From NCBI RefSeq assembly GCF_030684315.1, contig NC_081365.1, positions 47,849,205 to 47,913,204 on the forward strand: a stretch of 64,000 nt of DNA, in the 5' to 3' direction. The stretch comes from Stegostoma tigrinum (taxonomy: Eukaryota). Positions 907 through 61,461 of the stretch are shown piece after piece. The position numbers and the translations under genes are program-made. Below the pieces are notes generated by a model that saw only the letters and a program-made list of their open reading frames with translations, did not search any database and had not been told where the DNA came from. Position 1 is the stretch's first letter. Each line of letters opens with the position of its first letter.

Positions 907-1114
907 GAGATAACAAAGCGTGGAGCTGGAGGAACACAGCAGGCTAGGCAGCATCACAGGAGCAGGAAAGTTGACATTTTGCATTGGGACCCTTCTTCCT
1001 TTCCGACCCAAAATGTCAACTTTCCCGCTCTTTTGATACGGCCTGGCATGCTGTGTTCCTCCAGTACCACGCTTTGTTATCTCTGACTCCAGCATCTGCA
1101 GTTCTTGCTATTTC
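907..1114. mobile_element. Palindromic PLE family-A-like derivative
   Basis: Inverted arms; TSD-like ggtataata(a)ctag. Confidence 0.8.
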
Positions 1115-1194
1115 GGTATAATAACTAGTTTTACTGTTGCTGAGATTCATTTGGCTCGGATATCAAGGCCACCTTCCCTACTCTTCTTCACTCT

Positions 1195-1300
1195 TCGTTC
1201 TGAGGAAGGGTCACCGGACCCAAAACGTTAACTGTTTTTTTCCTTCACAGATGCTGCCAGACCTGCTGAGCTTTTCGAATAACTTTGTTCTTGTTTTTTT
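1195..1300 (+). mobile_element. PLE family-B terminal arm with hammerhead-like core
   Basis: GTT-CTGAGGA-A-GGGTC-ACCG-GACCC-AAAACGTT-AAC (GAAA box mutated). Confidence 0.75.
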
Positions 1301-2129
1301 TCTTCACTATAGTCTTGTATAGCCACCCAAGAAAAAGGCAATTTGTCAACGCTTTTCCACGTGCATTCATCAGGACAATTTGCCAGAAATAACAATATAA
1401 AGGGAAGCAACATTTATACGGTTATAAAAGCGTTGGTTGTTTGACAAGCATAGTCCAATTGTTGAGGTTTTCAGCAAAACATGTCATTTTGCAGCAAGAC
1501 TGTATAGTTATTATTAAAATCAAAATGAAAATAACAAGAAATTGTTCTACTTAGGGAGCGCAACTCATTACCACAAGAAATGGTTAAGGCAAACAGATTG
1601 GATGCTTTCAAATAAATACGTTGAAAGGCTGAGATTTTCGATATATAAAATGAGAGGAGACGGGAATGTGAATAGTAGCACAGGCTATTTGAGCAGCTTA
1701 TCCTACTGGTATAAGGTTTGTTGTATATTTCATAGGATTGCCAACGTCAATTTCGGGCAAATATTTGTTTTGAAAATACAGTGGCATAGCGCTGTCACAA
1801 ATCAATGGGCTGGTTGTACTAAACAGACAAGTCAGAACGTGCAAGGAAAGGTGGGACACAAGGAGTCGCTGAAGAATCAGCTTTAAAAATGATAATAATT
1901 AATTATATTACTTAAAAAAAAACTTTTTGCCCATGCGCAACGTGGAAGGAATCCAGACAACTACAGTGGTGAAAATAATGGCACGGCTTTCTTTGATTCC
2001 CAACACATCGGCCCACCTTAGAAACCCTAAGACAATGACATTAATTTCTTCAGAATGAGACATATTTAAAGAGCCTGCACTTTTTGCCCACTTTCCAACA
2101 TCAGAGGGTGAAAAATCCAGGATTCTTCT

Positions 2130-2700
2130 TTCCAGTTCGGGGCTAGCTGCGAAGGGGGCACTGCAGGTTTAACTGTGCCAAACCAAGCGGCGCCGATCTT
2201 AACCTTTCTCAGTCTCTCCATGAGCACTGCGGGGCTGGATGGGGAAAGGGAAAACAACACAAAAGAAAAACCGCTCGCTTGCCTCCCTCCCGTCTTTCCT
2301 TTTGGCTGCGGCCCAGCTCCGTGCGGATTTACCCCCTCCCTAACTCTGGCTCCCCCGCCCCGGACAAACATCACTTACCACCCAGTCTCGGCCATGGATC
2401 CCGCTCACAGTAGTATATCCGGGTATTCTCACTTCTCCGTTACCTTGGTGTCCGTTACTAAGGGGATTGCTAAATTCCTCTCCGTCGCCGTGGTGACGGT
2501 GGAACCGCCTCGCGCTGTGACGTCACTGCCCGCCGCGCGCGTGCTCGTGCTGGTGACCGTTGCAGCATTGTTTTTTACCCCCGACCCGAGACTGAGTGTA
2601 CGGCGATGTTGCAACTGTTTTTGCATTTACACGAATCAAGACGAACACTAGTTTGCAGCCCCGCGGCGTGGTTATAATCCACAGTAAATCTAACAACGTT
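2130..2700. promoter_or_regulatory. CpG-island promoter with three RFX X-box-like motifs and a palindromic CRE
   Basis: Dense CpG in an otherwise CpG-poor window. GTTACCTTGGTGTC 2439-2452, GTTACTAAGG 2454-2463, GTCGCCGTGGTGAC 2484-2497, GTGACGTCAC 2517-2526. Confidence 0.75.
2379..2395 (-). CDS. Probable first coding exon (MAETG + 2 nt) of an unidentified gene running out of the window to the left
   Basis: ccATGG followed by a consensus donor TG|gtaagt inside the CpG island. No downstream exon was confidently found in 1-2378. Confidence 0.5.
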
Positions 2701-2784
2701 GCTCAACGCTGTTAAGAGGGGCACAATGTGTAGAACCCTGAATCGCAGAGAATAATGGCGAAACCGAGCAGACTAGGTCAGGAC

Positions 2785-2917
2785 ATTTTCTGAAGAAGTA
2801 TCCAGACCCGAAACGTCAGCTTTCCTGCTCCTATGATGCTGCTTGCCCTGCTGTATTCATCCAGCTCCACACCTTGTTATCTCAGATTCGCCAGCATCTG
2901 CAGTCCTCACTATCTCT
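2785..2917 (+). mobile_element. Solo PLE family-A arm beginning at the hammerhead core, 14-bp TSD
   Basis: TSD agactaggtcagga; CTGAAGA...GAAACGTC at 2790-2817. Confidence 0.8.
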
Positions 2918-5155: not shown

Positions 5156-5698
5156 GTTAAAATTGTGATTAGAGATAATGAGAACTGCAGATGCTGGAGA
5201 ATCCGAGATAACAAAGTGTGGAGCTGGATGAACACAGCAGGCCAAGCAGCATCTTAGGAGCACAACAGCTGATGTTTCAGGCCTAGACCCTTCTTCAGAA
5301 GAGGGGGATGGGGAGAAGATTCTGAAATAAATAAACGGACAGGTCAAGGGGGCCCAGCTTGTCTCCGCCTCCCTCATCTGTTCTTCCTCTTACCTATCCC
5401 CTTCTCCTATCTCAAGCTGCACCTCCATTTCCTACCTACTAACTTCATCCCACCCCCTTGATCTGTCCATCCTCCCCAGACTGACCTATCCCCTCCTTAC
5501 CTCCCCACCTATACTTTCGTCTCCATCTATCTTCTCCTCTATCCATCCTCGGTGCGCCTCCCCCTCTCTCCCTATTTATTTCAGAATCCTCTCCCCATCC
5601 CTCTTTTCTGATGAAGGGTCTAGGCCTGAAACGTCAGCTTTTGTGCTCCTAGGATGCTGCTTGGCCTGCTGTGTTCAAACAGCTCCACACTTAGTTAT
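5156..5698. mobile_element. PLE family-A inverted terminal-repeat pair
   Basis: Left arm is the reverse complement of the right arm; TSD aaag(t/g)ataatgtggg. Confidence 0.85.
5606..5637 (+). ncRNA. Minimal hammerhead ribozyme motif (family A)
   Basis: CTGATGA-A-GGGTCTAGGCCT-GAAACGTC at 5608-5635. Confidence 0.62.
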
Positions 5699-5905: not shown

Positions 5906-6034
5906 AGATAAAGTGTTGAGCTGGATGAACGCAGAAAAGCTGATGCTCTTAAGATGCCGCTTGGCCTGCTGTGTTCATCCAGCTCAACACTTTGTTGTCT
6001 TGGATTCTCCAGAGTCTGTAGTTCCTATTATCTC
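5906..6034. mobile_element. Short PLE family-A palindrome
   Basis: Inverted arms; TSD-like tttcc(c)attttaa. Confidence 0.75.
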
Positions 6035-6259
6035 TTTTTCCATTTTAAACTATTTCAGTCTATGAAAGTACCAGATATTAAAATAATATGATCGAATTTG
6101 AAAATCAGAAGTTCATTTTTTAATCATTATTGTTGCACACCCCAAAGAACAAGATGAAGGTGTAATGATATTGGGAAATGGATCGTCACAGCTTGAAAAA
6201 TTGAGCAGGATAAATGGCATACCCACAGCTGATGACACAAAGGTATGTTATAAAATCAA

Positions 6260-8340: not shown

Positions 8341-8547
8341 ATCAGAGATAATGGTAACTGCAGATGCTGGAGAATCCAAGTTAACAAAGCGTGGGGCTGG
8401 ATGAACACAGCAGGCCAAGCAGCATCTTAGGAGCACAAAAGCTGACGTTTTGGGCCTAGACCCTTCTAGCCCCGAAATGTCAGCTCTTGTGCTCCTAAGA
8501 TGCTGCTTGGCCTGCTGTGTTTATTCAGCCCCACACTTTGTTATCTT
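8341..8547. mobile_element. Short PLE family-A palindrome
   Basis: Inverted arms; TSD ggttttaaattttg. Confidence 0.85.
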
Positions 8548-16709: not shown

Positions 16710-16753
<44 letters not shown>

Positions 16754-16830
16754 CTCTCTCTCCCTCGCCCCTCTCTCTCCCCTCTCACTCTCACTCTGTC
16801 TCTGACACACATACATACACTCACATACAT
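15740..16830. repeat. Degenerate GT/G-rich minisatellite followed by (CGCA)n(CA)n(CT)n microsatellites
   Basis: Directly visible; accounts for the overlapping low-complexity HT/CV ORFs. Confidence 0.92.
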
Positions 16831-17409
16831 GTGAATCAATAGGGTGAATTTATATTTGCAGGTGCATTTTATTTTGTTCAAAAGGCACAAAATTTATAGA
16901 CAAGTCAGTCATATGGTGTTTTATAAATGCCTACTTTAGAAATAAACCCAGTCTGACTCCAAACTAAAACACAAACAGATTCTAAACAAGGTCAAACACA
17001 TACACACACACACTTAACCTACATTGTCTGACCTAAAATATCACCTCTTCTTCACATTGATAAAACCTTTAGTTCTCTTCGGGCCAATACTTGAAAGGAA
17101 TTTGGGGGATTTACATATACATATTAATCAAGTAAAACCTTATAACTGATTAAAAATTTAACAGCACCTGAGGTTTGTTTAGTACATCCTCATCAATGGT
17201 GTGAACCTTTGATGTTTTACTTATAAATTCTGTGTCTGATACCACCTCACTAACACCTGAAGAAGGACTGAGGCTCCAAACGTTTGTTGGGAAAATAAGT
17301 TGAAGTGAAGAGATAAGAACTTTACAAATTGATTTGGCGGGTTTGGTGAATGGTCCAGAACTCAATGCTCAACCTATCAGTTTAGGCAAAATGTTGAAGA
17401 TCACCTAGA

Positions 17410-19790
17410 CTATCTCTAACACATGCCTCACATTCCTGGACCTCTCTGTCTCCATCTCGGGCAACCACCTAGAAACCAATATCCATTTCAAGCCCACCGA
17501 CTCCCACAGCTACCTAGAATACACCTCCCCCCCACCCACCCTCCTGCAAAAATGCCATTCCCAATCTCTGCGTCTCCGAAGCATCTGCTTCCAGGATGAG
17601 GCATTCCACTCCCGGACATCTCAGATGTCCTCGTTTTTCAAAATCTGCAATTTCCCCCTCACCGTGGTCGAGAACACCCTCAACCGTGTCTCCTGCATTT
17701 CCCGCAACTCATTCTTCACACCCCATCCCTGCAATAACAACTGAAACAGAATCCCCCTTGTCCTCACGTTCCACCCCACCAACCTCTGACTCCCATGCAT
17801 CATCCTCCAACACTTCCGCCATCTGCAATCCGACCCCACAACTAAAGACATTTTCCCCTCCCCACCCTTGTCTGCTTTCCAGAGGCACCACTCTCTCCGT
17901 GACTCCCTTGTCAGCTTCCCACTCCCATCCAGCCCCACCACAACTGGCATTTTTCCCTGCAACTGCAGGAAGTGCTATACCTACCTCCACACCACCTCCA
18001 TCACCTGCATCCTAGGCCCCAAGAAGACTTTCCACATCAAGCTGATGTTCACCTGCATATCTGCTGATGTGGTATACTGCATCCACTGTACCCATCTACA
18101 GTCTTGAGGACTGCTTTGCAGAACACCTATTCTTAGTTCGCAATAAACAGCTGCACCTCCCAGCTGCGAACCGTTTCAACTCCCCCTCCCATTCCTCAGA
18201 CGACGTGTCCATCCTGGGCCTCCTGCAGTGCCACAGCGATGCAGGAACACAAACTCATATTCTGCTTGGGAACCCTGCAGCCATAAGACCATAAAACATA
18301 GGAGTGGAGGTAAGGCCATTCAGCCCAACGAGTTGACTCCGCCATTTAAATCATGGCTGATGGGCCTTTCAACTCCACTTCCGTGCACTCTCCCCGTAGC
18401 CCTTGGTTCCTTGTGAGATTAAGAATTTATCGATCTCTGCCTTGAAGGCATCTAACGTCCCAGCCTCCACCGCACTCTATGCCACATGGTATCAATGTGG
18501 ATTTCACAAGCTTAAAAATCTCCCCCCACCGCACCCCAAGACCAGCCAAGCTCGTCCCCGCCTCCCTAACCTGTTCATCCTCTCGTCCCACTTCAAGCCG
18601 CACCCCCATTTCCTACCTGCTAAACTCATCCCGCCCTCTTGACCTATCTGTCCTCCCTGGACTGACCTATCCCCTCCCTACCTCCCCACCTACACTCACC
18701 TTTACTGGCTCCATCCCCGCCTCTTTAACTTGGCTGTCTCCTCTCCACCTATCTTCTCCTTTATCGGTCTTCAATCCGCATCCCCCTCTATCCCTGATAA
18801 CAAAGTGTCGAGCTGGTTGAACACAGCAGGCCAAGCACCATCTCAGGAGCACAAAAGCTGACGTTTTGGGCCTCGACCCTTCATCAGAGAGGGGGATGGG
18901 GAGAGGGTTCTGGAATAAATAGGGAGAGAGGGGGAGGCGGACCAAAGATGGAGAGGAAAGAAGATAGGTGGAGAGGAGAGTGTAGGTGGGGAAGTAGGGA
19001 GGGGGATAGGTCAGTCCAGGGAGGAAGGACTTTAGGATGCAGTGGGGGAGGGGGAGATTTTGAAGCTTGTGAAAGGAAAGGTTGCAGGAACAGCAACTCA
19101 TATTCTGCTTGGGAACCCTGCAGCCCAATGGTATCAATGTGGATTTCACAAGCTTCAAAATCTCCCCTTCCCCCACTGCACCCCAAAACCAGCCCAGCTT
19201 GTCCCCTCCCCCCACTGCATCCCAAAGCCAGCCCAGCTTGTCCCCGCCTCCCTAACCTGTTCTTCCTCTCACCTATCCCTTCCTCCCACCTCAAGCCGCA
19301 CCTCAATTTCCTAGCTACTAACCTCATCCCGCCTCCTTGACCTGTCCGACTTCTCTGGACTGACCTATCCCCTCCCTACCTCCCCACCTATACTCTCCTC
19401 TCCACCTATCTTCTTTTCTCTCCATCTTCGGTCCGCCTCCCCCTCTGTCCCTATTTATTCCAGAACCCTCTCCCCATCCCCCTCTCTGATGAATTGTCTC
19501 GGCCCGAAACATCAGCTTTTGTGCTCCTGAGATGCTGCTGGGCCTGCTGTGTTCATCCAGCTCCACACTTTGTTATCTTGGATTCTCTAGCATGTGCAGT
19601 TCCCATTATCTCCCCCTCTCTCCCTATTTATTTCAGAACCCTCTTCCCCTCCCATATTTCTGAAGAGGGGTCTAGGCCCGAAATGCCTGTTTTCCTGCTA
19701 CTAAGAAGCTGCTTGGCCTGCTGTGTTATCCAGCTTTACACCTTGTTATCTTGGATTCTCCAGCATCTGCCGTTCCTATTATCTCTGCAG
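17410..19790 (+). mobile_element. Nested Penelope-like (family A) cluster: RT-tail/GIY-YIG fragment plus tandem and inverted terminal repeats, interrupted by a CR1 3' end
   Basis: High similarity to 43200-44550. Inverted arm at about 18795-19075, repeated 3' ends at 19078-19612 and 19612-19787. Confidence 0.9.
18284..18480 (-). mobile_element. CR1 3' end inserted into a Penelope-like element
   Basis: Reverse complement of about 11085-11280. Confidence 0.85.
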
Positions 19791-24200: not shown

Positions 24201-24404
24201 TCTATATTTTCTGCATATAAAGTTCCGAAGAGATGTGCAGGGTACAGTTTAGGGACACGTAGTGGGGAAGCATGTGCATAGTTCCTAAGGAAGGCCAGCA
24301 CAGACACATTGCGTCGAAATGCCCTCTACTGTGCTGTAATGATTGTAAATATTTTGCACCAAATCATTATCTTTATGTGGAGTTACTGGTGTTGGACTGT
24401 GGTG

Positions 24405-35528: not shown

Positions 35529-35569
<41 letters not shown>

Positions 35570-37612: not shown

Positions 37613-40094
37613 AAAAAAGAGACATGGTTCTTACACAATGCTGTATAAAGATTAACATAATTTTCTTCCTCTTTTAAAGCCTTGAAACCACTCCGCCACT
37701 TTTTAAGCAATTTCTCAAAATGCTTTGGTGCATTCAATGATTACTGTTCATATACACTCAGGTCTCTCTGTTCCTGCATCCCTGCTAGAATTGTAGCCTT
37801 AGTTTATTTTATATTCCCTTGTTCATCCTACCAAAATTAATCACTTTACATTTCTCTGCGTTAAATCTTGTCTATTGTATGTTCACTTATTCCACAAGTC
37901 CTATCTTCTTGAGGTTCACTTCTGTTTTCTTCACAATTCACAATACTCCAAAGTTTTTTGTAAGCTATACGTTTTGAAATTGTGACCTGTAACCAAAGTC
38001 TAGGCCATTAATATAACATTACTATGTTAACTGCGATTCTTTTACTGACTCCTGGGGAACTCCATTGTTCATTACCTCAATTCAAAAAAAAATGAACTAA
38101 GAAAAGATTAAAAATAACTGAGTCTCATGCTGTTCATTTCCTCTTTCTTTTGACAATAATAAAACATATTTTTCAATAATCACCTGAGACATTGACTTGC
38201 TGGAAGTCAGCAGACAGTCACACACTAATGCCTTTCTGCATGTCAGAGACTGAGAAAAAAGGAATCATTAGACTTTTGCCTAATTTCTCAAAATGCTCTT
38301 CACAGGCCACATTTCTAAAGTCCAACTTTCTAATTTTGCAGACAGGTCTCATGCCAAGATTTCAGTGACAAATTGTGCGAAAGTAAGTCTTGGCTCAACA
38401 GGAATATGAGCGCAGGTTTGTGACACTTCCTAAAAATGGATCTACAGTCAAGGAAAATATCTATGTACTATTGTCATGTGAAAACAAAACTCAATTCTTT
38501 GACAATGGATTTTTTCAGAGAAGATGTCATTCAGATTATAGTAAAGTGAAATTGTACATCACTTCTGGAGTAGCTGCTGTATGCCGACGTATGTATCAAA
38601 TTTAACAGGAGCTTGAATTGAGACACACCTAATTTTGTCAGTCATGGCGACTGGTGAGCACAGGGTGACTTTGGAGGACTGAAAGTATGGCTGCTGAATT
38701 TGCAGATGATCAAGATACAGAGGAAAGTAAGCTGTGTTCAGGGCATAAGGAGACTACAAAGAAACATACACAGGTTAAATGATTGTGAAAGAATTCAGAA
38801 AAGACAATAAAATGTGAAAAAATGTGAAATTGTTGGCATGTTGAATACAAAAGCTTTTCATAAAACGTGTTCATGTGTTGCGGGTGTTGCTGGCTAAGCC
38901 GGCATTTATCAACATCCCTGTTCACCCTAGAGAAGGTGTCAGTCAGTTGTTTTCTTGAATCAGTGCAGTCTTTGAGTTGTAAGAACACTTAAAGTGTTAT
39001 TTCAGGACTTTTACTCAGCAACTGTAAAGGAACAATGGTAAGGTTCCAAGTCAGGATGGCTTGTCTGTGAGGAGAACTTGCTAGTACTCCTGAGTTTCTT
39101 CTGCCTTAACCTTTTAGTTTGGAAAAGTCACAGGTATGGAAATAGGTGTGGAAGGACTCTTGGTGAGATGCTTCCATGAGCTTAATAGATGGTATAGACT
39201 GCTATCACTGCACATTGATGGTGAAAGGAAAGAATGTCGAACGTGATGGATGGCATGCCAATCAAGTCCAGAGTAATGCAACCCACTCCTGACTTGTGCC
39301 TTATAGATGTTAGACAGGTATGTGAGTTACTTACTGTAGAATTCTTAGGCTGTGACCTGCTCTTGTAGCTACAGTATTCATATGGCTGATCCAGTTTAGT
39401 TTCTGGTCAATGGAAACTCCCAGGATGTTGATCGTATGGGATTGATTGATGGTAATGCCATTGAATGTCAAAAGACAATGGATAGATTCTCTTTTGCTAG
39501 AGATGCCCATTGCTTGGCACTCAGGAGGCACAGAAGTTACTTTCTACTTATTAGCTCAAGGCTGGATATTGTCCAGATCTTACTGCATGCAGACATAGGC
39601 TGCTTCACTATTTGAGAAATCACAAATGAAGGTGAACATTGTGCAATCACCAGTGAACATCCGACTGCTGACTTTATGATGGAGGGAAGGTTATTGACAA
39701 AGCAACTGAAGATGGTTGGTCTTAGGACACTACCCTGAGGAACTCTTGCAGAGATGATCTGTTGGCTGTGGGAATCACCTAACCATTACCATTATGCACT
39801 GCTTCCACTTTTGGTATGAAAGTAGTGCTGTGTTGTATATTTAATAGGTTGACGCTTCTTTTTTAGGTATGCCTGCTGCTACTTGCATACCGTCCTGCAT
39901 ACTTCATTTGGCCACTGTTGATATCCTGGCTTGGTAGTAATGGTACAATTGGAGATCTGAGGCTATGAAGCTAAAGATTTTGACTGAATTATCTAAAATA
40001 GTGAGAGACTGCAAAGCTCAGATATAGATGGATTCAGTATGGTGCTGCATGTATCATGAAAGGTTAGCATTTATGTACAGCAAGTAATTAGCAA

Positions 40095-40193
40095 CTAAAA
40101 CAGAAATTGCTGGAAAAGCTTAGCAGGCCTGACAGCATCTGTGGACAGAAATCAGAATTAACGTTTCAGATCGAGTGGCCCTTCCTCAGAACT
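40095..40193 (-). mobile_element. PLE family-B arm inserted in a CR1 fragment, 13-bp TSD
   Basis: TSD aagtaattagcaa on both sides. Confidence 0.8.
40157..40193 (-). ncRNA. Minimal hammerhead motif (family B)
   Basis: AGTT-CTGAGGA-A-GGGCCACTCGATCT-GAA-ACGT-T-AATT; stem I AGTT/AATT, stem II partly decayed. Confidence 0.5.
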
Positions 40194-41709
40194 GAAGTAA
40201 TTAGCAATGCTAATTGAATGTTTTAATTTATTGCAATGAGAATTGAATACAAAAGTGAGGAGATTATCCTTCAGTTCGGAAAGGCATTTCTGAGACCACA
40301 TCTGAAGTAAATGAATGCAGTATTGGTCTCCTTATTTAGAAAATCAGTTGAAATATGTTTGGAAGCAGTTCAGCAAAGGTTTACGGGACTAAAACCTGGA
40401 TGGTAGGTATTTCTTGAATAGACTTGTATCCACTGGAGTTCAGAAGAATAAGAGGTGATCTGATTGCAACATATAAGACCTTGATGGGTCTTGACACAGT
40501 GAATATTGAAAGGATGTTCACTCTTGTGGGAGAATCTGGAAGGAGGGGGTCATCGTTTAAAAAGAAGGGATTGTACTTTCAAAACAGACATGAGGTAAAT
40601 TGTTTTTCCTCAGAGGATCCTGAGTCTGGAACTTTCTTCCTCAAGAGGCATTGCAAGTAGATGCCTTTGAATACTTTTAATGCAGACTAGATAGACTGTT
40701 AACAAGCAAAGGGCTGAAAGATTATTGCGGGTAAGCAAGAATATGGAGTAATCAGCCAAGATCTTACTCAATGGTGGAGCTGGTTTGAGAGAAGGAAGAA
40801 CAAACAAGGAGTATGACCTTCCAGAGACTACGGCAGAATGCCAAGGTAAAGACAGATTTAGGTACAAGAGTGAATGGGTCACAAATAATTGGTAAGCAGG
40901 GACCACACATAATTAGTGGAATTCTATACCTTTATCATGAGAGGAACTGAACATATATGTAAGGCTGTTATGCTTCAGTAATACAGGGCTTTGGTGACAA
41001 CACATTGCAAATACTGACTGCAGTTGTCGTCTCCTTTCAGGATGGATTTAAATGCATTGGAGGTACAGTGGTGACTTACTAGATTGATTCCTGAGCTGAG
41101 TGGGTTATGTAATGAGGCTCAGTTGGACAGGCTGCACTTATTTCAACTGGGGTTTAGAAGAATGAGGAGTGACCCCTCTCTCAAACAGTTTAGAGCTTAT
41201 GGGCACTGTTTTAAAATAAGGGGTGACTAAGGAGAGAGATGAGGATTTTATTTTCCTCAAAGACTTGTGATAATTTGGAATCCTCTGCCTTAGAAGGTGG
41301 CAGATGTGCTGTCAATGAATATTTTTTAGTACAGAGTCAGATATACTTTTGTTAGGGAGGGGAATCATGGGTTCTCGGGGTGATTCGGAATGTGGAATTC
41401 CAAAAATGATCAGATCAGCCATGGTTTTATTGAGTTGTAGAGCTGGGACTCAATGGCCTGCTTCTGTTCCTATTTCTTATGTTTTTGCATCTGTAACAAG
41501 GGTATAGTAAATCTAATACAAAAATGTGGATTACTACATCAAATAAATTTTACATTACGAATTTCCAGACCAACTAAAGTAACTTCGTAGTGAAATGCAG
41601 AGCACTGCTATTCATTAAACAATGGTCTGGTTTCTGCTGCTTTGATTTATGAAATGCTCCCATAACACAAATCATTTGTATGAATAAATGAATAACAGAG
41701 ATTCCCCAA

Positions 41710-42100: not shown

Positions 42101-44557
42101 TAAGATAACAAAGTGTGTAGCTGGATGAACACAGCAGGCCAAGCAGCATCTCAGGAGCACAAAAGCTGACGTTTTGGGCCTAGACCCTTCATCAGAGAGG
42201 GGGTTGGGGAGAGGGTTCTGAAATAAATAGGGAGAGAGGGGGAGGCAGACCAAAGATGGATAGAGGAGAAGATAGGTGGAGAGGAGAGTATAGGTGGGAA
42301 GGTAGGGAGGGGATAGGTCAGTCCGGGGAGAACGGACAGGTCAAGGAGGTGGGATGAGGTTGGTAGGTGGGAAATGGAGGTGCGCTTGAGGTGGGAGGAG
42401 GGGATAGGTGAGAGGAAGAACAGGTTAGGGAGGCGGGGACGAGCTGGGCTGGTTTTGTGATGCAGCGGGGGGAGGGGACGAGCTGTGCTGGTTTTGGGAT
42501 GCAGTGTGGGAGGGAGATTTTGAAGCTAGTGAAGTCCACATTGATACCATTGGGCTGCAGGGTTCCCAAGAGGAATATGAGTTGCTGTTCCTGCATCATT
42601 GTGGCACTGCAGGAGGCCCATGATGGACAAGTCATCTAAGGAATGGGAGGGGGAGTTAAAATGGTATGCGACTGGGAGTGTAATTGTTTGTCTGGACTCC
42701 ATTTTCTCCCCATTGATCCAGGAACTCCCCACCTATGTCCGTGACACCACCCACGCCCTCCACCTCCTCCAGAAATTCCAATTCCCTGGCCCCCAACACC
42801 TCATTTTCACAATGGACGTCCAGTCCCTATACACCTGCATTCCTCATGCAGATGGCCTTAAGGCCCTCCACTTCTTCCTGTCCCGCAGGCCCGACCAGTC
42901 CCCCTCCGACACCCTCATCCACCTAGCCGAACTCACCCTCACCCTCAACAATATCTCTTTCGATTCCTCCCACTTCCTACAGACAAAGGGGATGGCCATG
43001 GGTACCCGCATGGGCCCAAGCTATGCCTGCCTCTTTGTAGGTTACGTGGAACAGTCCCTCTTCCGCACCTACACTGGCCCCAAACCCCACCTCTTAATCT
43101 GTTACATTGATGACTGTATCGGCGGCGCCTCTTGCTCCCAAGAGGAGCTCGAACAGTTCATCCACTTCACCAACACCTTCCACTCCAACCTCAAGTTCAC
43201 CTGGGCCATCTCCAACACATCCCTCACCTTCCTGGACCTCTCTGTCTCCATCTCAGGCAACTAGCTAGAAGCCGATGTCCACTTCAAGCCCACCAACTCC
43301 CACAGCTACCTAGATTACACCTCCTCCCACCCACCCTCCTGCAAAAATTCCATCCCCTATTCCCAATTCCTTTGCCTCCGCCGCATCTGCTCCCAGGATG
43401 AGGCATTCCACTCCCGCATATCCCAGATGTCCACGTTCTTCAAGGACCGCAACATCCCCCCCGCAGTGGTCGAGAACGCCCTTGACCGTGTCTCCCGCAT
43501 TTCCCACAACACATCCCTCACACCCCGCCCCCGCGATAGCCACCCTAAGAGAATCCCCCTCGTCCTCACATACCTCCGCACCAACCTCCGCGTATGACGC
43601 ATCATCCTCCGACACTTACGCCACCCACAATCCGACCCCATCACCCAAGACATTTTTCCATCCCCACCCTTGTCTGCCTTCCGGAGAGACAACTCTCTCT
43701 GTGACTCCCTTCCACACTCCACCACTCCGAGCACCTTCCCCTGCAACTGCAGGAAGTGCTACACTTGCCCCCACACTTCCTCGCTCACCCCCATCCCAGG
43801 CCCCAAGATGACTTTCCATATTAAGCAGATGTTCACCTGCACATCTGCCAATGTAGTATACTGTATCCACTGTACCCGGTGTGGCTTCCTCTACACTGGG
43901 GAAACCAAGCGAAGGCTTGGGGACCGCTTTGCAGAACACCTCCGCTCAGTTCGCAACAAACAACTGCACCTCCCAGTTGCGAACCATTTTAACTCCCCCT
44001 CCCATTCCTTAGACGACTTGTCCATCATGGGCCTCCTGCAGTGCCACAATGATGCCACCCGAAGGTTGCAGGAACAGCAACTCACATTCTGCTTGGGAAC
44101 CCTGCAGCCCAATGGTATCGATGTGGACTTCACTAACTTCAAAATCTCCCCCTCCCACACTGCATCACAAAACCAGCCTAGCTCATCCCTGCCTCCCTAA
44201 CTTGTTCTTCCTTTCACCTATCCCCTCCTCCCACCTCAAGCCGCACCTCCATTTCCCACCTACTAACCTCATCCCGCCTCCTTGACCTGTCCGTCCTCCC
44301 CAGACTGACCTAACCCCTCCCCACCTCCCCACCTATGCTCTCCTCTCCACCTATCTTCTCCTCTATCCATCTTCGGTCCGCCTGCCCCTCTCTCCCTATT
44401 TATTTCAGAACCGTCTTCCCAGTCCCCTCTCTGATGAAGGGTCTAGGCCCGAAACATCCGCTTTTGTGCTCCTGAGTTGCTGCTTGGCCTGCTGTGTTCA
44501 TCCAGCTTCACACTTTTTTATCTTGGATTCTCCAGCATCTGCAGTTCCCATTATCTC
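42101..44557 (+). mobile_element. Penelope-like retroelement (family A), 5'-truncated and degenerate, RT + GIY-YIG endonuclease, with inverted copy of its 3' end on the left
   Basis: RT motifs MDVQSLYT, GMAMGTRMGPSYA and YIDD; GIY-YIG/Zn region VVYCIHCTRCGFLYTGETKR...EH; in-frame stops. 42103-42677 is the reverse complement of about 43972-44525. Flanking direct repeat tctctctaacgaaa at 42086-42099 and 44556-44569. Confidence 0.93.
44429..44458 (+). ncRNA. Hammerhead motif in the 3' terminal repeat of the Penelope-like element
   Basis: CTGATGA-A-GGGTCTAGGCCC-GAAACATC (CpG-type G>A change in helix III). Confidence 0.55.
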
Positions 44558-44729
44558 TCTCTAACGAAAGTTCAGTTATTCACATCCTTTGAAAAATCGA
44601 GCTATTTTGTTTAGTTTTGGGAATTGTTCCATTGCAGCTTTTGAAGTTCGAGATTGCAAAATAAAGTCTATCTGACCATAATGAGGTGTTGCATTTTGTT
44701 CAACAAATAAGGGTAGGTCTTATGCTATT

Positions 44730-46369: not shown

Positions 46370-47685
46370 AAGAATGGCAGATGCTGGAGTCAGAGACAAC
46401 AAAGTGTGGAACAAAAACAGAGTTGCTAGAAAAGCTCAGAAGGAAAAGCTCTGTGAAGGAAAAAACAGAGTTAATGTTTCAGGTCCAGTGACCCTTCCTC
46501 AGAACTTAGGAAGCTGAACTCTGTTTTTTTCCTTCACAGATGCTGCCAGACCTGCTGAGCTTTTCCAGCAACTTTGTTCTTGTTCCTGATTTACAGCATT
46601 CACAGTTCTTTTGGTTTTTATAACAAAGCATGGAGCTGGGGGAACAGTGCAGGAAAACTGATGTTTTGGATTGGAACTCTTCTTCAGAAGTAGGGAAGGG
46701 AGTTCAGAAATAGAGAGGAGGGGTGGGGCTGGAGAAGGTAGGTGGGGTGGTGACAGGTGGGTGCAGGTAGGGAGTGGTTAGGATTGGTCAATGATGTGGG
46801 AATGGCGGATAGGTGGGAGAGAGGACAGGTGAGGGGAGTTAAAATGGTGTTTAAAAGGGAGTTAAAAGTTGAGGGGAGAGAGGTAGACAGGTTGTGTCAG
46901 GTCGGGGGGTGGGTTGGACATGGGATGAAGCCGGGGTGGGGAAATTTTGAAACTGGTAAAATACACATTCAGGCCATTGGGCTGTAGGCTCTCGAGGCGG
47001 AATATGAGGTGCTGATCCTTCAATGCGTGTGGTGTTATTGTGACACTGGAGGAGGCCCAAGATGGATATGTCACCTAGGGAGTGGGAGGGGTGTTAAAAT
47101 GTTTTGTGACTTGTTGTTTGTCACATACAGAGCACAGATGTTCTACAAACAGTCAGTGAGTCTTTGTTTGGTCTCACCGATGTAGACGAGGCCACATTGG
47201 GAGCAGAGGATGCAGTCGACCAAATTGATGACCATGCAGGTGAACCATGTCTGATGTCGAAGGTTTTTTTTCTTGAATGGAGTTGAGGGTGGAGGTGTAG
47301 GGGCAGGTGTAGCACTTCCTGCGGTTATGGGGAAAGTGCCAGGGGTGTTGGGGCTAGTGGGAAGTGTGGGGTGGATGAGGGAGCCGTGGACAGACCAGTC
47401 CCTACAAAAGGCATATAGTGGCGGGGAGGGAAATATATCTTTGGTTGTGGGGTCAGATTGTAGGTGGCAGAAGTGGTGGAGAACGATACATTGGATGCGG
47501 AGGTTGGTGGGATGATATGTGAGGACAAGGGGGATTCTGTCTTTATTTTCGTTATTGTTTGGGGAGGTGATGTGAGAGCAGAGGTGTGGGAAATGCAAGA
47601 GATGCGTTTGGGGGCATTTTCAATCACTGGAGGGGGGACGTTACACTCCTTCAAATGGGGGGACATCTGGGATGTGTGGGAGTAG
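46370..47685 (-). mobile_element. Older Penelope-like element fragment (GIY-YIG region + terminal repeat) with a nested family-B palindrome
   Basis: ORF 47143-47598 RIPLVLTYHP...CILCSQCGLVYIGETKQRL; terminal repeat related to family A. Confidence 0.85.
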
Positions 47686-54300: not shown

Positions 54301-57300
54301 TGTGATGAACCTCTGATTCACTGCTCAGATATATTCTTTCCTTATTGCAAATGAGATATTTCACCTTCTAAATAATAAATCATTGCATTTAGGCTGGAAT
54401 CAAGGTATTACCTTTCATACAGCTTTCATTGGAAACAGACAACATATGCAACTTTCAAGACTTATAACAGTTCAAACCTAGCAATTTATAGCATTTCAAG
54501 GCAAAAGTAAGATAGGCATAAGAAGATTACCTAATTCAAACAGGAAGCAACTTTCATGCAATTTTACAATGTCCAAATGAGATAATGGATATGTGGGATA
54601 AAGAAATTAAGAATTTCAGGTCAATTATTGCAATTATAAAGAAATTGAATCAATTAAATGTTGAAAGAGTTAAAGAGACAGTAATACATCTATTCAATTC
54701 ACATTGAGAAAAGAGAGTGATCTTGGCTGTTGAATGAGAAATTCCTGACTGAAGTAGACACGTGTGGACTTTGGAAGGAGATGGTTTGCAGTATGGACCA
54801 CCATTTTTGATTCCAAGGTTTTTCATTTGTTATCTGTATTAGTCTTACCATGTACAATCAGGCAGGTCTTCCCAATCTTATTGCCATCTAGGAATGTAGT
54901 AAAAACACAATGATAACATCCTTCATCTTCAAACATTACTCCAGATACTACAAGGGTGGACATTTGCAGCTTTGATTGTACGAAAGTAGCTCTACCACCA
55001 AATGACTCAAGAATATGGGCTCCATTTTTTTCACTAAATGTAGCAATATTATCCTCAGATTGACCATGTAACTTTTGCCAAGTGACTTGTACAATGTCTT
55101 TAAAAGGTAAAGCGCAGCTGAAGGTAACGTTTCCACCTAAAGATGCTGTAACAGTCTCCTCCGTTTCCACATTCAGAGAAATTCCTGTGAATACAAGAAA
55201 ATTATAGTAAAACACATTAATATTTCCACACTATCTGCGGAGTTTCATCACCAATAAATTATTCATAGTTTGTTCAAATTATAGTGGACTAACCATTACT
55301 CAGTAATCTTCTGTTAGAGTCAGAAGATTGTAAATCAGATTCCTAAAGATTTGACTGCAAACTCTAGCATGATACTACCAATTCAGTGGAGAGAGAGTAC
55401 TGCATTACTGGACACTAGAAATTAATGCAAGCTCCCATCTGCCCTCAGGTAATACAAGAGATATCAGAGCACTATTTGTAAAAGATCAAAGAAGTTTCCC
55501 TATCTCCATTACAATATTGGCTTTTCAAATAATATAGAATCCCTACGGTGCACAAAGAGGTCATTCGGCCCATCAGGTTTGCGCCAACCCTTCAAAGAGC
55601 ATCCCACCCCATCCCTGTATTTACTATTCCTAACCCAACTTGTCTATACATTTCAAGACACCACTGGGCAATTTAGCATGGCCAATCCACCTAACATGCA
55701 TATCTTTGGACTGTGGAAGAAAACCAGAGCGCCCAGAGGAAACTCACTGGGAGGACATTGCAAACTCCAGATAGAAAGTCACCCAAGGCTGGAACTGAAA
55801 CCAAGTCCCTAGTGATGTGAGGTAGCAGTACTAGGCACTGAGTCACCATGCCACCTCCACAGTGCTGAAACAGATTATCTAACCATTATTGAATTACTGT
55901 TTCTAGGATATTTGTTTGCTTAAATTGACTGATGCAATTCCTATTTTACAAATAGTAAGTACGTTTAAATATACTTAACTGGCTGTGAAGCACTTGGGAA
56001 ATTCTGAAATACTGAATTAGTTTATATTAGTGACAATGTATATTAAAATTTTACTCAAATAAATAAATCTAAACAAACTCTGTTTCTTCAAACATTTTTA
56101 GATTCTGCTAAATCAGCTGCAAAATATTTGCTTTTTATTTACAAATTAGCTTGAAAAAATTGCACATGGTTGTTTGGATAATTCACTGTCATTCGCAATT
56201 AATGATGTTGGAAGTTGTTTAATTCATGCAAGCACAGTCCATATTCTGAGCTCAACTAGTTGTGCAGAAACCATGTAGAAGGTTTCTGATTCAAGTTAAC
56301 AACTTTGATTGATACCTTCACTGGACGTCCCCATGCACAAGCAGGCACAAATAAATCAGAAATAATGAGAATTGCAGAAGTTTTTGTGCTCCTGAGATGC
56401 CGCTTGGCCTGCTGTGTTCATCCAGCTTCACACTTTGTTATCAACAAATAAATCATAGTTCAAGTATTAACATCTTGTCCAGTTAGGATTACCTTCCAGC
56501 ACCATTGTTGCAGCAGCTCACTTGACACTCTGGCATTAGCAGAAACTGAACAGTTTGGGGTTCACTCCACATGCACAAAAGACTTACAGCAAAATTAACG
56601 CAATTTAGGAAGGAGTCTACCAGTAGCTGGCCTTGAAATTTCAGGTACAGTGGAATAGCTGGGTTGTTATTGCAACATAAATGTTTTACAAATTAAGGAA
56701 AGTAGGAAGAGCCAAATAGCGTCCTTAATAACATTGTCTATGTTCCCAGTGGTTCCATCACATGATCTCCCATTCCAAAAACCATGCCCAATCAAATGGC
56801 CCATTTTCCCTGTTGCAAATAATTTTGGAACTAGTACATCAATGGTCTCAGGACAGTTTGTTTTACATTTGCGATTAACAACCCATGCTTCCAACACTCA
56901 AAGTTTCTCTGAGCAATGTTATGCAATTATTTTTCATTTCCAGAAACTCTAGATCAATCCGGATTGGTGTTATGTTCTTTTTCTTACTGTAAATATCCAA
57001 ACTATATACAAACACGTTTTAATTTGATGATAATACTATATCGAAGTACATTTAACTTGAGAGTGTAAAGCATAGCTTATCTAATCTGTATTCCTGTGGC
57101 TTGCAGACTGATTACAAAATTATGTGACAAACATACCTTGTCTCAAGATTGTAGTGATTGACAGTAGTATATTATTAAACTGGAGAGGTTGCAGAGTATT
57201 TGAGTTATAAAAAGGTGCTTTTAATTTGGGACTTTTTTCACTGGAGCCCAGGAGATTGGTGCTGACCTAATAGGGGTTTGTAAAATCATGAGGGGCATAG

Positions 57301-60196
57301 ATAAGGTGAATAAGCCATTTCCTAAGAGTAGGGGATTTCAAAACTACAGGAAATAATTTTAAGGTGAGAGGGGAAAGATTTAATAGGGACCTGAGGAGCA
57401 ACTTTTTCACACAGAGGGCGATACATATGCAGAATAAATTGCAGAGGAAGTGGTAGATGCACTTTGAACATTTAAAGGCATTTGGCCAGGTACATGAATG
57501 GGAGAGGTTTAGAGAGATATGGGCCAAACACAGGAATATCTGACTAGTTTAGTTTGGGAAGCTTGGCCAGTATGAACAAATTAGACCAAAGAGTCTGTTT
57601 CTAGCTGTATGACTCTATAACTCTACAATCTTACATTTCAAGGAAACATATACCATTAGACCAGTCAGATCTCACACGACGGCAGGTTATAGCTCAGCAG
57701 CTTTATTTGAAATCACAAGCTTTTGGGGCTGTGGTCCTTCATCAGACAATCAGGTATTGAAGTGGAATTAGGACATTTGGCTCATTGAGTCTGCACAACA
57801 ATTCAATCATAGCTGATGTGTTTCTTAACCTCATTCTCCAACCCTCTCCTGAGTAACCCTTGATCTCCTTATTAATCAAGAACCTATCTATCTCTGTCTT
57901 GAAGGCACTCAATGACTTAGCCTCCACGGCTTTCTGTGGCAATATGTTCCAAAGATTCACAAGCCACTGGCTGAAGAAATTCCTTTTTATCTTTCACTGT
58001 GATGGTGTGCCCTCAGATCTTAGTCTCACCTATCAGTGAAAACATCTTTTCCACACGCACCCTGTCCAGGCCTCTCAGTAATTTGTCTCAATGAAATTCT
58101 GCCTCATCCTTCTGAACTCCTTCAAACACAGACCCAGAGTCCTCAAATGTTCTTCATATCACAAACCATTCATCTCAGGATCATTCTTTTGAACCTCCTC
58201 TCAACCTCTCCAAGGCCAGCACATCCATTTTTATATATGGGGCCCAAAATTACTCAGAATGTTCCAACTGCAGCCTTATACAGTCTCAGCAGTACACCCC
58301 TGCTTTTGCATTCTATCCTAAGTGCCTTTATGCTTCAGATTTCCGAAGTGCTTCTTCATTTAGAAAACAGTCTACATCTCTATTCCCACCAAAGCGCATG
58401 ATCTCACACATTTCTCACATTATATTCCAATGAATGTGTAATGTTCCAGAGTATTTCTTTCCATCTGAGCTTGTATCCTGAGATAGTAAGAACTACTGAT
58501 GCTGGAGTCTGAGATAACACGGTGTGGAGCTGGATGAACACAAGGGTCCCGACTCGAAACATCCACTTTCCTGCTTCTCTGATGCTGCCTGGCCGAATGT
58601 GTTCCTCCAGCTCCATGCTGTGTTATCCCAGTTGCATCCTGTTCTGTGAATAGAAAAAGCTGAAAGCATGGGATTTTTCAGTGTATAGGATAGGATCTTA
58701 AGGAATCTCTTCAAATTAACTTTCTTTTGGACACATATGCCAATAGATACATTTTTAAAATGTTTGATTTTTATAAAGTTTTGTAAGGAATCATGCACTA
58801 AGCTATAACCTCATTATAACATTCATATATCTTTCAAAGATAATTCACCATTGAGTTGTATACAGTTGATAGATTTGACACATGATTGAAAGTGTTTTTA
58901 AATGACATTATAAAGAACTTCCTAATGACAGTTGTTTCTGACATGTTGCATTTGATGATAGCCAAGCAAATGAGCAGGAGCCGTAAAATAATTCTCAAAA
59001 CAGACAGAAATGGCTCTCTGCATCATCTATTGCAAGGGTATAATTCAGTAAGGAGTGCTAATGGGACACCATCAGCATACAGCAACTCTCTGATTACCTC
59101 ACAGCAGACCAATCTTGCATCCTAGGTGAATATGGCTGGACAATTTTCTGTCATTCTGGTATCTATATAGACACTCTCTGCAGATGATGGCATATGACAA
59201 CAGAATAATATACTAAAGATCGTTGGCATCGGACCTTAGCTTTGTTTGACCCCATTTCAGATTTCAAAGGTTTCTGATATTATCCTGACTAAACTGGCCA
59301 TACTACTCACATTTTCATAAAATAACAGTGAGCAGCTTCAGCAGGCAAAACATTTTGTTCAGCAGCTTATATAGACCTCCTTTGCTCACATGGTCAAATA
59401 ATGACATGACAAGAGACGAACCAGGGATGGTCAAGAGAGTAGCATTAGCCTCTCTGAATGCGCTGTTTCTGAAAGAACATTTGCAGCCATGGACTTCTGT
59501 TCTGGTACGCTTCTGCACCGCAGGGTACAATGATTGTATTTACTGTATTCTGCAGCTGACTGGGAATCTTACTTGATTCTTCCCGCCTGCGACTGGCATG
59601 TGTTGTAAGCATTAACAAGCTAAAACTCAACCTGGTTGGAAAACTTATGGACACACCTTCCCTATCAATCAAGTAGGATTTGAACCTGAAGCTTCAGACT
59701 CCTAAGTAGGCAAATCACAGAATAAGACCTGTTTGAACACACAGTGTTCGTGCAATAGGAGTGTGGGCTTGGGCAAGAACAACCGCTAATACAGCGAAGG
59801 GATAGATTGCAATGTACTGCTCGTCCTACTCTAATGTTGAAATGCTTCACTTTAAAATAAGCTCAGGTCTTTATGACAATATCCATACGTACATTCTCCT
59901 AATTTTAATGTAACTATTCATCCTCATTATTGCAGCAATTTTTATTATCTGATTCATGTTAATTTATCAAATACTATCTTTTGTTTTTACTCTCTAGAAG
60001 CATTTGCTTCAACAGAACAAAGTTTTCTACATTTTTTTCTCAATAAGGTCTCATTCAATTACCAGAATCTGACTTTTTTAAGAGTTCGAAGATATAAAGT
60101 GTCGTTCTGAACTGTTTAAAAATATACATATCTGTTTAAAACAACAGTCTCACCGTCTACTGCAGTGACCAATAGCCCGAAGATAAAAAGTTTCAT
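48332..60196 (-). CDS. CD200 (OX-2)/nectin-receptor-family Ig superfamily type I membrane protein: leader-IgV-IgV-TM-ITIM tail, 5 exons, 294 aa
   Basis: Hand-spliced exons 60196-60154, 55184-54849, 52923-52588, 48593-48476 and 48383-48332 give a continuous 885-nt frame with GT-AG introns (phases 1,1,1,2). The IgV motifs VTWQK, ATFSE and EDEGCYHCVF..GKTCL resemble the CD200 V domain, including its extra F-G cysteine pair. Confidence 0.85.
48476..48593 (-). CDS. Exon 4, stalk + transmembrane segment (AHTSPNNTQHHTWIVLVLVAILIVILMSSQQCYKKRCQL)
   Basis: Strong acceptor cccttttacctctttgcag, donor AG|gtaagt. A hydrophobic run followed by KKR is in frame with exon 3. Confidence 0.88.
49225..49800 (-). 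mobile_element. CR1 RT fragment in intron 3
   Basis: GV..GS..GPLLF.IYIN.L...SKFA(E)DTK; RDLGV. Confidence 0.8.
50627..50677. repeat. 21-bp tandem repeat, about 2.4 copies
   Basis: ggatgagtgctgtctgaaggc / gaatgagcgctgtctgagggt / ggatgagc. Confidence 0.75.
50780..52390 (+). mobile_element. Degenerate CR1 ORF1 SGNH/GDSL-esterase remnants (at least two), one split by a SINE
   Basis: VIVGDTIMR at about 51676, VVHVGTN at about 50890, IYVGTND at about 51833, SGLLP at about 52278. Confidence 0.6.
51862..52171 (+). mobile_element. HE1-type V-SINE, full length, with a 25-nt internal inversion
   Basis: A-box tggctcaatgg, B-box ggttcgattcc, V domain, tail. Confidence 0.9.
52588..52923 (-). CDS. Exon 3, IgV domain 2 (tandem duplicate of exon 2)
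   Basis: Acceptor ttttttaattccacag, donor gtaaga, 336 nt, phase 1-1. Hand alignment gives 72/112 aa identical to IgV1. Confidence 0.93.
53516..53835 (-). mobile_element. HE1-type V-SINE
   Basis: Homologous to 3164-3456. Confidence 0.88.
54849..55184 (-). CDS. Exon 2, IgV domain 1
   Basis: Acceptor ttcttgtattcacag, donor gtaaga, 336 nt, phase 1-1. B-strand Cys, C-strand Trp and a DxGxYxC motif are present. Confidence 0.93.
55535..55856 (-). mobile_element. HE1-type V-SINE (older), inserted in a DeuSINE-like relic
   Basis: Homologous to 53516-53835. Confidence 0.8.
56359..56442. mobile_element. Deleted PLE family-A palindrome in intron 1, 12-bp TSD
   Basis: TSD acaaataaatca. Confidence 0.75.
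57175..58450. mobile_element. Two convergent CR1 3' fragments in intron 1 separated by a family-C arm
   Basis: Plus-strand CR1 tail at 57175-57630; minus-strand LWN.LPQKAVEA...FK.EIDRFL at 57745-58450. Confidence 0.75.
57662..57744 (-). mobile_element. Family-C arm with hammerhead-like core
   Basis: Minus strand CTGATGA-A-GGACCACAGCCCC-AAAAGCTT-GTG; homologous to 24410-24495. Confidence 0.6.
58479..58628. mobile_element. PLE family-A-like palindrome in intron 1
   Basis: Inverted arms gataacac.gtgtggagctgga / tccagctccatgctgtgttatc. Confidence 0.72.
59311..59353 (-). pseudogene. Possible disabled alternative leader exon MFCLLKLLTVIL*K
   Basis: 43 nt like the real leader exon, ATG with A at -3, hydrophobic, phase-1 gtgagt donor, in-frame TGA at codon 13, TATATAAG just upstream. 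Confidence 0.35.
60154..60196 (-). CDS. Exon 1, signal peptide MKLFIFGLLVTAVD(G)
   Basis: ATG at 60196, hydrophobic core, phase-1 donor G|gtgaga at 60153, in frame with the IgV1 exon. Confidence 0.8.
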
Positions 60197-60249
60197 CTGC
60201 GAATCTTCGCGCAGCTCCAGCGAGGAGCTTTCAGGGTGCAGCAACAACA

Positions 60250-60385
60250 AACATTAATAAACCTGGTCTTCGATGCCGGAGAGTCCCAAATTTGTTGAAA
60301 TCAATGACAAAGGCGGTCTTTCTGTTTCATATACTCTTATTTTTTGACGCTCCAGTAAGCCCGTCTGCTTTGGAGGAAATAACGC
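60250..60385 (-). promoter_or_regulatory. Proximal promoter of the CD200-like gene: TATA-like, NF-kB, ISRE/IRF and ETS motifs
   Basis: Minus strand TTTATTAAT (about 60253-60261), GGGACTCTCC (60278-60287) and GAAACAGAAA (60319-60328); GGAGGAAAT at about 60372-60380; local CpG enrichment. Confidence 0.55.
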
Positions 60386-61249
60386 CATCATGTGTCACAT
60401 TATTTCGTTCAAATTGCTGCAGATGGATTAAACGAAATAGTTTACGTCTTCAGGTAGGACAGCTCCTGAATCAGAAAAAAATTCTGCGTCCTTGTTAGAC
60501 CGCAAGTTCACCGAGAAAAAGCTAAGCAATTCAATAACATACTGAAAATAAACAGCTTTTGCCAGCCTCAGGCAGTTTCCATGGAGAGGAGTAGAGCCAG
60601 CGGAGAAATTGGCTGAGCTTGTGTCATGGGCCAAAGATGCTGGTTTCAATCTTCCCCCTATTTAATTAGGGATGTTTTGGCTTATCCAGGACTGAAATAC
60701 AGATAATATTTCCACTGAGTTGGAAACAGTGCAGGGGTTCAGAAGGTGGCGGTGAGGTACAGCCGGCTGCCACATCTGTGATAATGTTGTAATTTTGGGT
60801 GAACGTGGAAAAGTACAGCACAGGAACAGGTCTTTAGGCCCACAATGTTGTGCCAAGCATGACACCGAATTAAACTAATCTCTTCTGCCCGCTTTTAGTC
60901 CTTATCTATTCCTTAAATATTCATGTGTCTATCTAGAAGTCCTTTCAACATCCCGATGGTATTTGCATGATTGGCACATTGGTGAGAAACAGATGGAGAT
61001 AAAGGGTAATTTTTTGTTGAACAGCAGAGGAAATTGTGTGGGGAGGATGAAAGGTTTTATTAAACAAGAATATTAAGGGATTTGGACCCAAGGTAGGCAT
61101 CTGGAGTTGGGCCACAGATCAACCTCGATCTTATTGGATGGCAAGGGACTGAATGACTTACTTTTGTTCCTAAGAAAGACAAGCCTCTTCTGGATACCCT
61201 GGAAATGATTAGGTAGCCTCTGAGAATAAAACCAGGTGAGAGTAGTTCC

Positions 61250-61461
61250 AGAGATAATGGGAACTGCAGATGCTGGAGATTCCAAGATAATAAAATGTGA
61301 GGCTGGACGAACACAGCAGGCCAAGCAGCATCTCAGGAGCACAAAAGCTGACGTTTCGGGCCTAGACCCTTCATCAGAGAGCTAGGCCCGAAACGTCAGC
61401 TTTTGTGCTCCTGAGATGCTGCTTGGCCTGCTGTGTTTGTCCAGCCTCACATTTTATTATC
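61250..61461. mobile_element. Short palindromic PLE family-A derivative, 14-bp TSD
   Basis: Near-perfect inverted arms matching the terminal repeat of the 42.1-44.6 kb element; TSD tgagagtagttcca on both sides. Confidence 0.9.
61347..61380 (-). ncRNA. Minimal type I hammerhead ribozyme motif (family A), intact core
   Basis: CT-CTGATGA-A-GGGT(CTAG)GCCC-GAA-ACGT-C-AG: conserved CUGANGA and GAAA boxes, stem II, palindromic ACGU helix III, GUC cleavage triplet. Fits PLE-associated minimal hammerheads. Confidence 0.7.

Follow-up and report, generated by a model that had tools for sequence, protein, structure and literature searches.

The window (the whole 64-kb stretch of Stegostoma tigrinum DNA under study) contains 32 copies of the ends of Penelope-like elements (PLEs) of three families, A, B, and C, whose terminal repeats carry predicted minimal hammerhead ribozymes (HHRs). 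A single-strand-oriented copy of a repeat end is called an arm, and positions are counted from C3 of the HHR core, which is position 0. The features are as follows.

907..1104: older family A foldback, 5' half of the HHR missing
1197..1296, plus strand: family B short arm starting at -3, G12 lost
2786..2917, plus strand: older, tailed family A short arm starting at -2 to -4, core intact
5168..5698: family A foldback with two longer arms (starting at -34 and -253), HHRs at 5298 (minus) and 5608 (plus, intact)
5944..6035, plus strand: family A arm without HHR, starting at +36
8342..8547: family A foldback, both arms beginning within the HHR (+5 and +11), flanking duplication of 14 bp
16710..17290, plus strand: family C long pLTR with CA repeat, ~520-bp body, TATA-like box (17222-17227), and degenerate HHR (17257)
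17397..19787: family A PLE fragments, an inverted arm (HHR 18887, minus) and two tandem pLTRs (HHRs 19486 and 19660)
24375..24536: family C foldback, HHR 24489 (minus), G5 lost
26763..26992: family A foldback, HHR 26901, flanking duplication of 11 bp
30976..31059, plus strand: family A arm starting at +9
33490..33564, minus strand: family B fragment without HHR
34571..34792: family B foldback, HHR 34696
37412..37612: family B foldback, HHR 37516
40086..40195, minus strand: family B short arm starting at -6, core and helix III intact (C3 40189)
42102..44558, plus strand: 5'-truncated, stop-interrupted family A PLE, with an inverted 5' arm without tail (42102-42691) and a sense body (~42700-44558) comprising RT, CX4CxxC linker, GIY-YIG-type endonuclease, pLTR, and tail
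44397..44403, plus strand: TATA-like box, predicted promoter, 34 nt upstream of HHR C3
44431..44458, plus strand: family A HHR inside the pLTR, helix III mutated at CpG
46408..46621: family B foldback, HHR 46502 (minus)
46620..46688, minus strand: old family A-like HHR arm, adjoining a minus-strand endonuclease-like fragment at ~46.9-47.7 kb
56379..56442, plus strand: family A arm starting at +28, the predicted first post-cleavage base
57663..57745, minus strand: family C short arm, G12 lost
58480..58627: old family A foldback
61243..61462: family A foldback, minus arm from -4 to +128 with intact HHR (C3 61377), plus arm from +12 to +92

An HHR core was present in 19 arms (11 A, 5 B, and 3 C), and CUGANGA, GAAA, and a palindromic helix III were all intact in 4 of them (2790, 5608, 40189, and 61377). 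The three-family division of PLE terminal-repeat minimal hammerheads proposed in a preliminary description of this DNA was confirmed. All 12 HHR sites named there were recovered, 4 of them shifted by 1 to 2 bases, with C3 actually lying at 40189, 46502, 24489, and 57745. Of the 19 core-bearing arms, 9 (5298, 5608, 17257, 18887, 19486, 19660, 42195, 44431, and 46687) are the ends of longer Penelope fragments and are not short. The degenerate HHR at 17257 was assigned to family C through 520 bp of homology upstream.

Parent elements and genome-wide abundance

Family A had been described as the terminal-repeat type of the element at 42.1-44.6 kb, and the sequence match was verified. This element scored above the Pfam cutoff for RVT_1 (E value of 1.3e-7) and below it for GIY-YIG (19.4 versus 22.6 bits); CxxC and His motifs are visible in the endonuclease, along with a GIY-YIG-type motif. 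Long family B copies have up to 1,064 bp in common upstream of the repeat and include RT, linker, and endonuclease pieces ~50% identical to those of family A (tblastn). For family C, coding sequence was located in a single locus, L271, with weak linker and endonuclease matches only (E values of 6e-5 and 0.004), the inverted layout of the family A element, and the same cysteine linker. A tblastn search upstream of 9 long C copies found no family C coding sequence and one unrelated A fragment. Because longer copies carry Penelope-like coding sequence, weak in the case of C, each of the three families is, judged from these matches, the end of its own PLE, C least firmly. The CX4CxxC linker preceding the endonuclease in A and C conforms to CX2-5CxxC, a feature of the Neptune clade according to the available text of Craig et al. 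(2021; PMC8557442).

The genome comprises 3.2 Gb in 835 contigs, and its repeats may be akin to those of cartilaginous fishes. A family-independent descriptor matched 105 times across 1.2 Mb taken at even spacing from the genome, while three Markov controls gave 0, 3, and 2 matches. The genome-wide count called for in the preliminary description found 171,719 intact cores by exact matching, compared with 141 in a reversed control. Since both searches exceeded their controls, chance matching is excluded. Exact family-specific cores numbered 94,491 (A), 1,258 (B), and 48 (C), with 0 in the reversed controls; these counts understate B and C because their copies are more diverged. In 120 stretches of 10 kb, we found 387 arms (271 A, 100 B, and 16 C), or one per 3.1 kb, close to the one motif per ~3 kb estimated earlier, and extrapolation from these stretches, which lie on large contigs only, gives a genome total of about 1 million arms. 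The arm density of the window is unexceptional for the genome. No Rfam family exceeded its threshold in the window (only Hammerhead_3, at 26.7 bits versus 48.5 required). MicroRNA-like Rfam matches were rejected, their positions falling on inverted or simple repeats, as was a type III hammerhead reading of the 61.3-kb foldback, because it is produced by the inverted arm.

Ribozyme anatomy, folding, and decay

CUGANGA and GAAA boxes with an NUH site were found, and an extra base between 9 and 10.1, a G10.1-C11.1 pair, and a palindromic 15.2-16.2 occur in all three families. As a check suggested by the preliminary description, seven copies from the three families were aligned; the core columns were invariant while the helices differed, so that, between families, the core passes the conservation test set there. 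Helix I is CU/AG in A (2 bp only), GUU/AAC in B, and CAC/GUG in C, and a fourth HHR family elsewhere in the genome has UCA/UGA. Across the four families, helices I and II stay paired though their sequences differ, as judged by inspection and not by a covariation statistic. By these features, the copies are PLE minimal type I hammerheads, a known kind of predicted self-cleaving RNA. In the lowest-energy fold of the copy at 61377, the two core strands pair together, in monomer and dimer alike, and the fold is not that of the active dimer. This modeled fold lends activity no support and would fit protein-assisted HHR cleavage, which is reported for the green anole element in the available text of Frangieh et al. 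(2024; PMC11167929).

Decay was assessed in 72 A1 and 12 A2 long copies, after 13 of 97 anchored copies had been excluded as out of register. At non-CpG sites, divergence was 21/720 in the core and 115/2,952 downstream (p = 0.23); purifying selection on inserted copies was not found in this set, and the inserted copies decay neutrally. The earlier statement that many copies are mutated stands, with the correction that the changes described as G>A decay sit at two CpGs: among the 72 long A1 copies, 8 are mutated at G12 and 16 at G16.2, and core and helix III are intact in 39.

Ends, joints, and origin of the copies

The 5' ends of arms accumulate 4 to 7 nt upstream of the core. In family A (324 arms), 75 ends lie at -10 to -1 and 23 at -100 to -11 (7.5 versus 0.26 per base); the corresponding numbers are 53 and 6 in family B (133 arms) and 8 and 2 in family C (20 arms), with the qualification that alignment ends carry an uncertainty of a few bases and that some of the counts in the -1 bin may come from an older A subfamily. 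In long copies of all three families, a TATA-like box stands ~30 nt upstream of the pile-up, at -34/-33 in A, -33 in B, and ~-37 to -35 in C, and long B and C copies have an initiator-like sequence at the pile-up point itself; both motifs are predicted from their consensus sequences. Short copies have no TATA-like box.

Genome-wide, there are 5,919 family A copies whose base before the -4 start is non-template, and this base is G in 4,723 of them, compared with 4 of 107 long copies at the same position. With T two bases out, so that palindromes are absent, G still accounts for ~77% (roughly 800 copies with G to 240 with A or T, as estimated from the first 100 matches of each list), and at a control junction, +12, G was found in 23 of 81 copies. 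Joining may account for part of this signal: AG was the dinucleotide in 67 of the first 100 family A matches with G, and a palindromic joint can template AG, while G was directly templated by the other arm in 6 of 22 such copies inspected. In family C, G, A, and T precede the start in 56, 24, and 20, respectively, of the first 100 of 119 matches, with G expected at 26%. A palindromic joint in family C predicts T, not G. In family B, G was not enriched ahead of the predicted start (30 G, 51 A, and 19 T in the first 100 of 979 matches; p = 0.36). Untemplated 5' G in L1 and SVA insertions has been ascribed to the cap (PMC3287187, in its available text).

A foldback census of 1.46 Mb yielded 102 distinct junctions among 103 foldbacks, and two short arms are joined at 97 of the 102. 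In 60 of 66 family A foldbacks, one arm but not the other has the 35-nt Penelope tail, and target duplications of 7 to 14 bp flank 24 of 43 well-kept A foldbacks versus a mean of 1.0 after partner shuffling. Outer 3' ends fall mostly at +88 to +96 or +124 to +129 in family A and at +95 or +132 in family B; contigs from four other runs stop at the identical two points, 44523 and 44558. This pair of ends matches the two RT start sites that bound the tail in the anole element (available text of PMC11167929). The features of an EN+ PLE were found: an inverted 5' copy, a one-sided tail of 30 to 40 bp, a variable target duplication, and, ahead of the pLTR, an RT with a GIY-YIG endonuclease after it, the last two weakly in C, where the linker and endonuclease alone were matched. 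Each short copy looks like a separately made dead-end insertion.

In family A, 2,687 copies start at +28, the base that directly follows the predicted cut, versus 249 at +23, 199 at +27 (six of nine letter pairs), 529 at +29, and 459 at +30. About 62 of the first 100 matches at +28 are AGCT-centered palindromes. Perfect foldbacks on other palindromes (~110 on ACGT and 103 on CTAG, with search patterns handicapped by 1 and 3 CpGs, respectively) are roughly 15-fold fewer than the ~1,670 AGCT matches, and without palindromes and microhomology the +28 excess is ~1.5- to 2-fold. Family B has 69 cut-site starts versus 10, 13, and 36, and microhomology or a short deletion fits 49 of the 69; family C has no cut-site peak (36 starts against 70 one base further on, the latter falling to 34 when 36 CA matches are set aside). 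As a sign of HHR cleavage, the +28 peak is therefore suggestive in family A only, and confounded there.

We consider it probable that the short copies are separate, decaying terminal-repeat insertions of three PLE families and that most of them are run-off cDNAs from a capped 5' end. Random 5' truncation of insertions primed in the 3' pLTR, with RT stalling at the folded hammerhead, is an unlikely alternative. It would accord with the 140 of 324 family A arms that start at 0 to +60, in or just past the HHR, and PLE copies are typically 5'-truncated and accompanied by an inverted copy (available text of PMC8557442); a stall, however, is expected at the 3' foot of helix II (~+20), and the peak lies on the far 5' side, with a 29-fold drop directly upstream of it. 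Truncation also leaves the extra G of A and C and the constant spacing of the TATA-like box unexplained. We find it barely credible that a splice acceptor at helix I forms the boundary and that the short copies were made from spliced RNA. The precedent is D. virilis Penelope, where the HHR begins at the end of an intron, not at a start site (PMC4209133), which also speaks against the start site proposed here. In keeping with that precedent, the upstream sequence is pyrimidine-rich in A and B, and AG stands just before helix I in B, but many B copies retain this AG, A has none at the boundary, and upstream sequence differs from copy to copy where a common upstream exon would be expected.

MITEs are short, noncoding, high-copy elements of inverted-repeat appearance, with equal terminal repeats and a fixed short duplication. 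The preliminary description had the motifs spread by nonautonomous, MITE-like elements, a claim that was not supported: the structure is not fixed and master-copied, the junctions being almost all unique; the arms are unequal, differing by the tail; and the duplications are long and variable. A self-propagating MITE- or SINE-like family with its own short masters would account for the joining of two short arms at most junctions, promoter-keeping solo pLTRs could template in trans, and nonautonomous PLE derivatives do exist (available text of Li et al. 2026, bioRxiv 10.64898/2026.07.22.740005, and PMC8557442). We nevertheless regard it as very unlikely, since junctions are unshared, outer ends are unequal, duplications vary, and short copies lack the TATA-like box; junction diversity largely refutes a master-copy reading. 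Highly improbable, too, is a retrozyme-like spread in which HHR cleavage and circular RNA make the templates and the ribozyme drives copy number. The +28 peak in family A and a few tandem arrays speak for it, although the majority of short copies include sequence upstream of the cut and therefore derive from uncut RNA. The copies are, moreover, dispersed monomers or foldbacks, tandem HHR arrays being rare (the pair 19486/19660 and a handful of loci outside the window); the +28 starts are largely palindromic in A, fit microhomology for the most part in B, and form no peak in C; and insertion in vitro is independent of HHR activity (available text of PMC11167929).

The run-off origin could work as follows. 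A TATA-like pLTR promoter would start transcription 4 to 7 nt ahead of the HHR core, and the PLE protein would nick both target strands, 7 to 14 nt apart. Reverse transcription would begin within the RNA, at ~+127 and ~+92; as the first pLTR of the transcript has just 100 to 130 nt upstream, RT would run off the end, often copying the cap as an extra G. The cDNA ends would be trimmed and joined head to head, or a single cDNA would fold back, and either route would give a MITE-looking foldback with the tail on one arm. The product would have no promoter and hence would decay. Either a full element or any solo pLTR with a promoter might serve as the template, and the 140 family A arms mentioned above may represent trimmed or early-stopped ends. 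Both the transcription start at helix I and the internal priming at the first pLTR are what we infer from the copy ends. Such an origin would explain the huge copy number as well as the hairpin shape.

More tentatively, and with considerable doubt, the ~1 million insertions may record two 5' ends of PLE RNA, mainly the cap run-off and, as a minor class in family A, the cleavage end at +28, with an asymmetric RT dimer (+127/+92) building the inversion. If true, this would be genomic evidence both for germ-line cleavage by a minimal PLE hammerhead, through which the transcript would remove its own cap, and for the asymmetric dimer.

Comparison with known systems

The ribozyme type, its occurrence as solo motifs by the thousand, and the inverted layout have been published before. 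Published PLE minimal type I HHRs have the same core, extra 9/10.1 base, G10.1-C11.1 pair, and palindromic 15.2-16.2 (PMC4209133); they likewise occur as several families per genome, and most stand singly and are described as "probably related to truncated PLEs," with some lying 100 to 700 bp apart on opposite strands. The survey left copy ends unmapped, whereas they are mapped here. Helix II is 7 to 8 bp and helix I 4 to 5 bp in the Schistosoma HHR, compared with 4 to 5 and 2 to 3 bp here. Published counts, obtained with a descriptor of their own, are ~4,000 for coelacanth and ~9,000 for Xenopus, far below the 171,719 exact cores (~172,000 in one genome) counted here with a different pattern.

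The closest experimental parallel is with Poseidon PAc of the green anole. In the available text on PAc (PMC11167929), two internal RT start sites bound the tail, both strands are cut and extended, the HHR lies close upstream of the start sites, and a protein dimer is predicted; that text contains neither a mapped transcription start nor a run-off or cap-G analysis, nor does it show reads at the HHR cut site. The elements here differ from PAc in their CX4CxxC linker, which makes Neptune their candidate clade. The available text of PMC8557442 describes the same insertion architecture, with an inverted 5'-truncated copy, a variable target duplication, and a 30- to 40-bp tail often at one end only, and places a start site within the pLTR in D. 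virilis Penelope and Chlamys-3. It differs in giving an internal promoter that overlaps an intron, where an upstream TATA-like box and a helix I start are proposed here, and contains no mention of TATA. Non-LTR retrozymes, in the available text of Li et al. (2026), are also PLE derived and noncoding with a type I HHR, and dispersed monomers were seen among them, with one chondrichthyan sampled. They are defined as tandem repeats with an HHR per unit, in contrast to the mostly dispersed arms and head-to-head foldbacks found here.

The new findings are the pile-up of copy ends before the core, ~30 nt behind a TATA-like box, and the accompanying extra G in A and C. In a literature search of incomplete coverage, we found no description of run-off insertions, cap-G, or a helix I start site in PLEs. 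The PLE transposition cycle and the role of the PLE hammerhead are open questions in the available texts of PMC8557442 and PMC11167929, and the copy ends predict the exact transcription start, the cap-copying step, and possibly the cleavage product at single-base resolution.

The copies resemble MITEs in size, copy number, and inverted look and differ from them in an unfixed structure and a retrotransposon origin. Caution is thus warranted, as PLE foldbacks of this kind can pass for MITEs.

Family A in related organisms and a possible upstream boundary

Thousands of contigs from two other organisms (contig sets X1-X3 and X6) carry the family A repeat with two 3' ends identical to those of the family A element in the window (44523 and 44558), and the repeat is therefore common to relatives. 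Among 324 family A arms (single copies of the repeat end on one strand), 11 start at -284/-283, counted from C3 of the hammerhead core; either a genuine boundary or a break in the alignment where two subfamilies meet could account for this start.

Possible preferred targets, a fourth hammerhead family, and other repeats

Arms of one family often lie within or adjoin the tail of another family's copy (sample stretch L183, the L217 region, and window positions 46408-46688), which suggests that tails of Penelope-like elements are preferred targets. At evenly spaced sample loci outside the window, a family-independent descriptor detected a fourth hammerhead family (extra base T, 6-bp helix II, and helix I UCA/UGA), with at least 10 copies among the matches listed.

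The window also holds three further dispersed repeat families. Spurious ORFs and microRNA-like Rfam matches arise from a GT-rich degenerate tandem region.

Additional repeats in the window
15740-16750, GT-rich degenerate tandem region; its 3' part is the CA repeat that opens the family C pLTR (terminal repeat)
11042-11281, 18284-18477, 57744-57980, first dispersed family
3160-3455, 12495-12713, 51853-52177, 53512-53853, 55535-55855, second dispersed family
36210-36638, 45010-45288, 57200-57617, third dispersed family

Tandem family A arrangements

Several family A pLTRs, both tandem and inverted, occur at L080:4977-6183 and L074:6765-8434 (sample stretches of the same genome), with a common 5' start at -59 or about -126. 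Nine tandem family A pieces, spaced at 208 bp and each starting with helix III, were found at G000:C2:58043051-58044747, an array that is retrozyme- or satellite-like.
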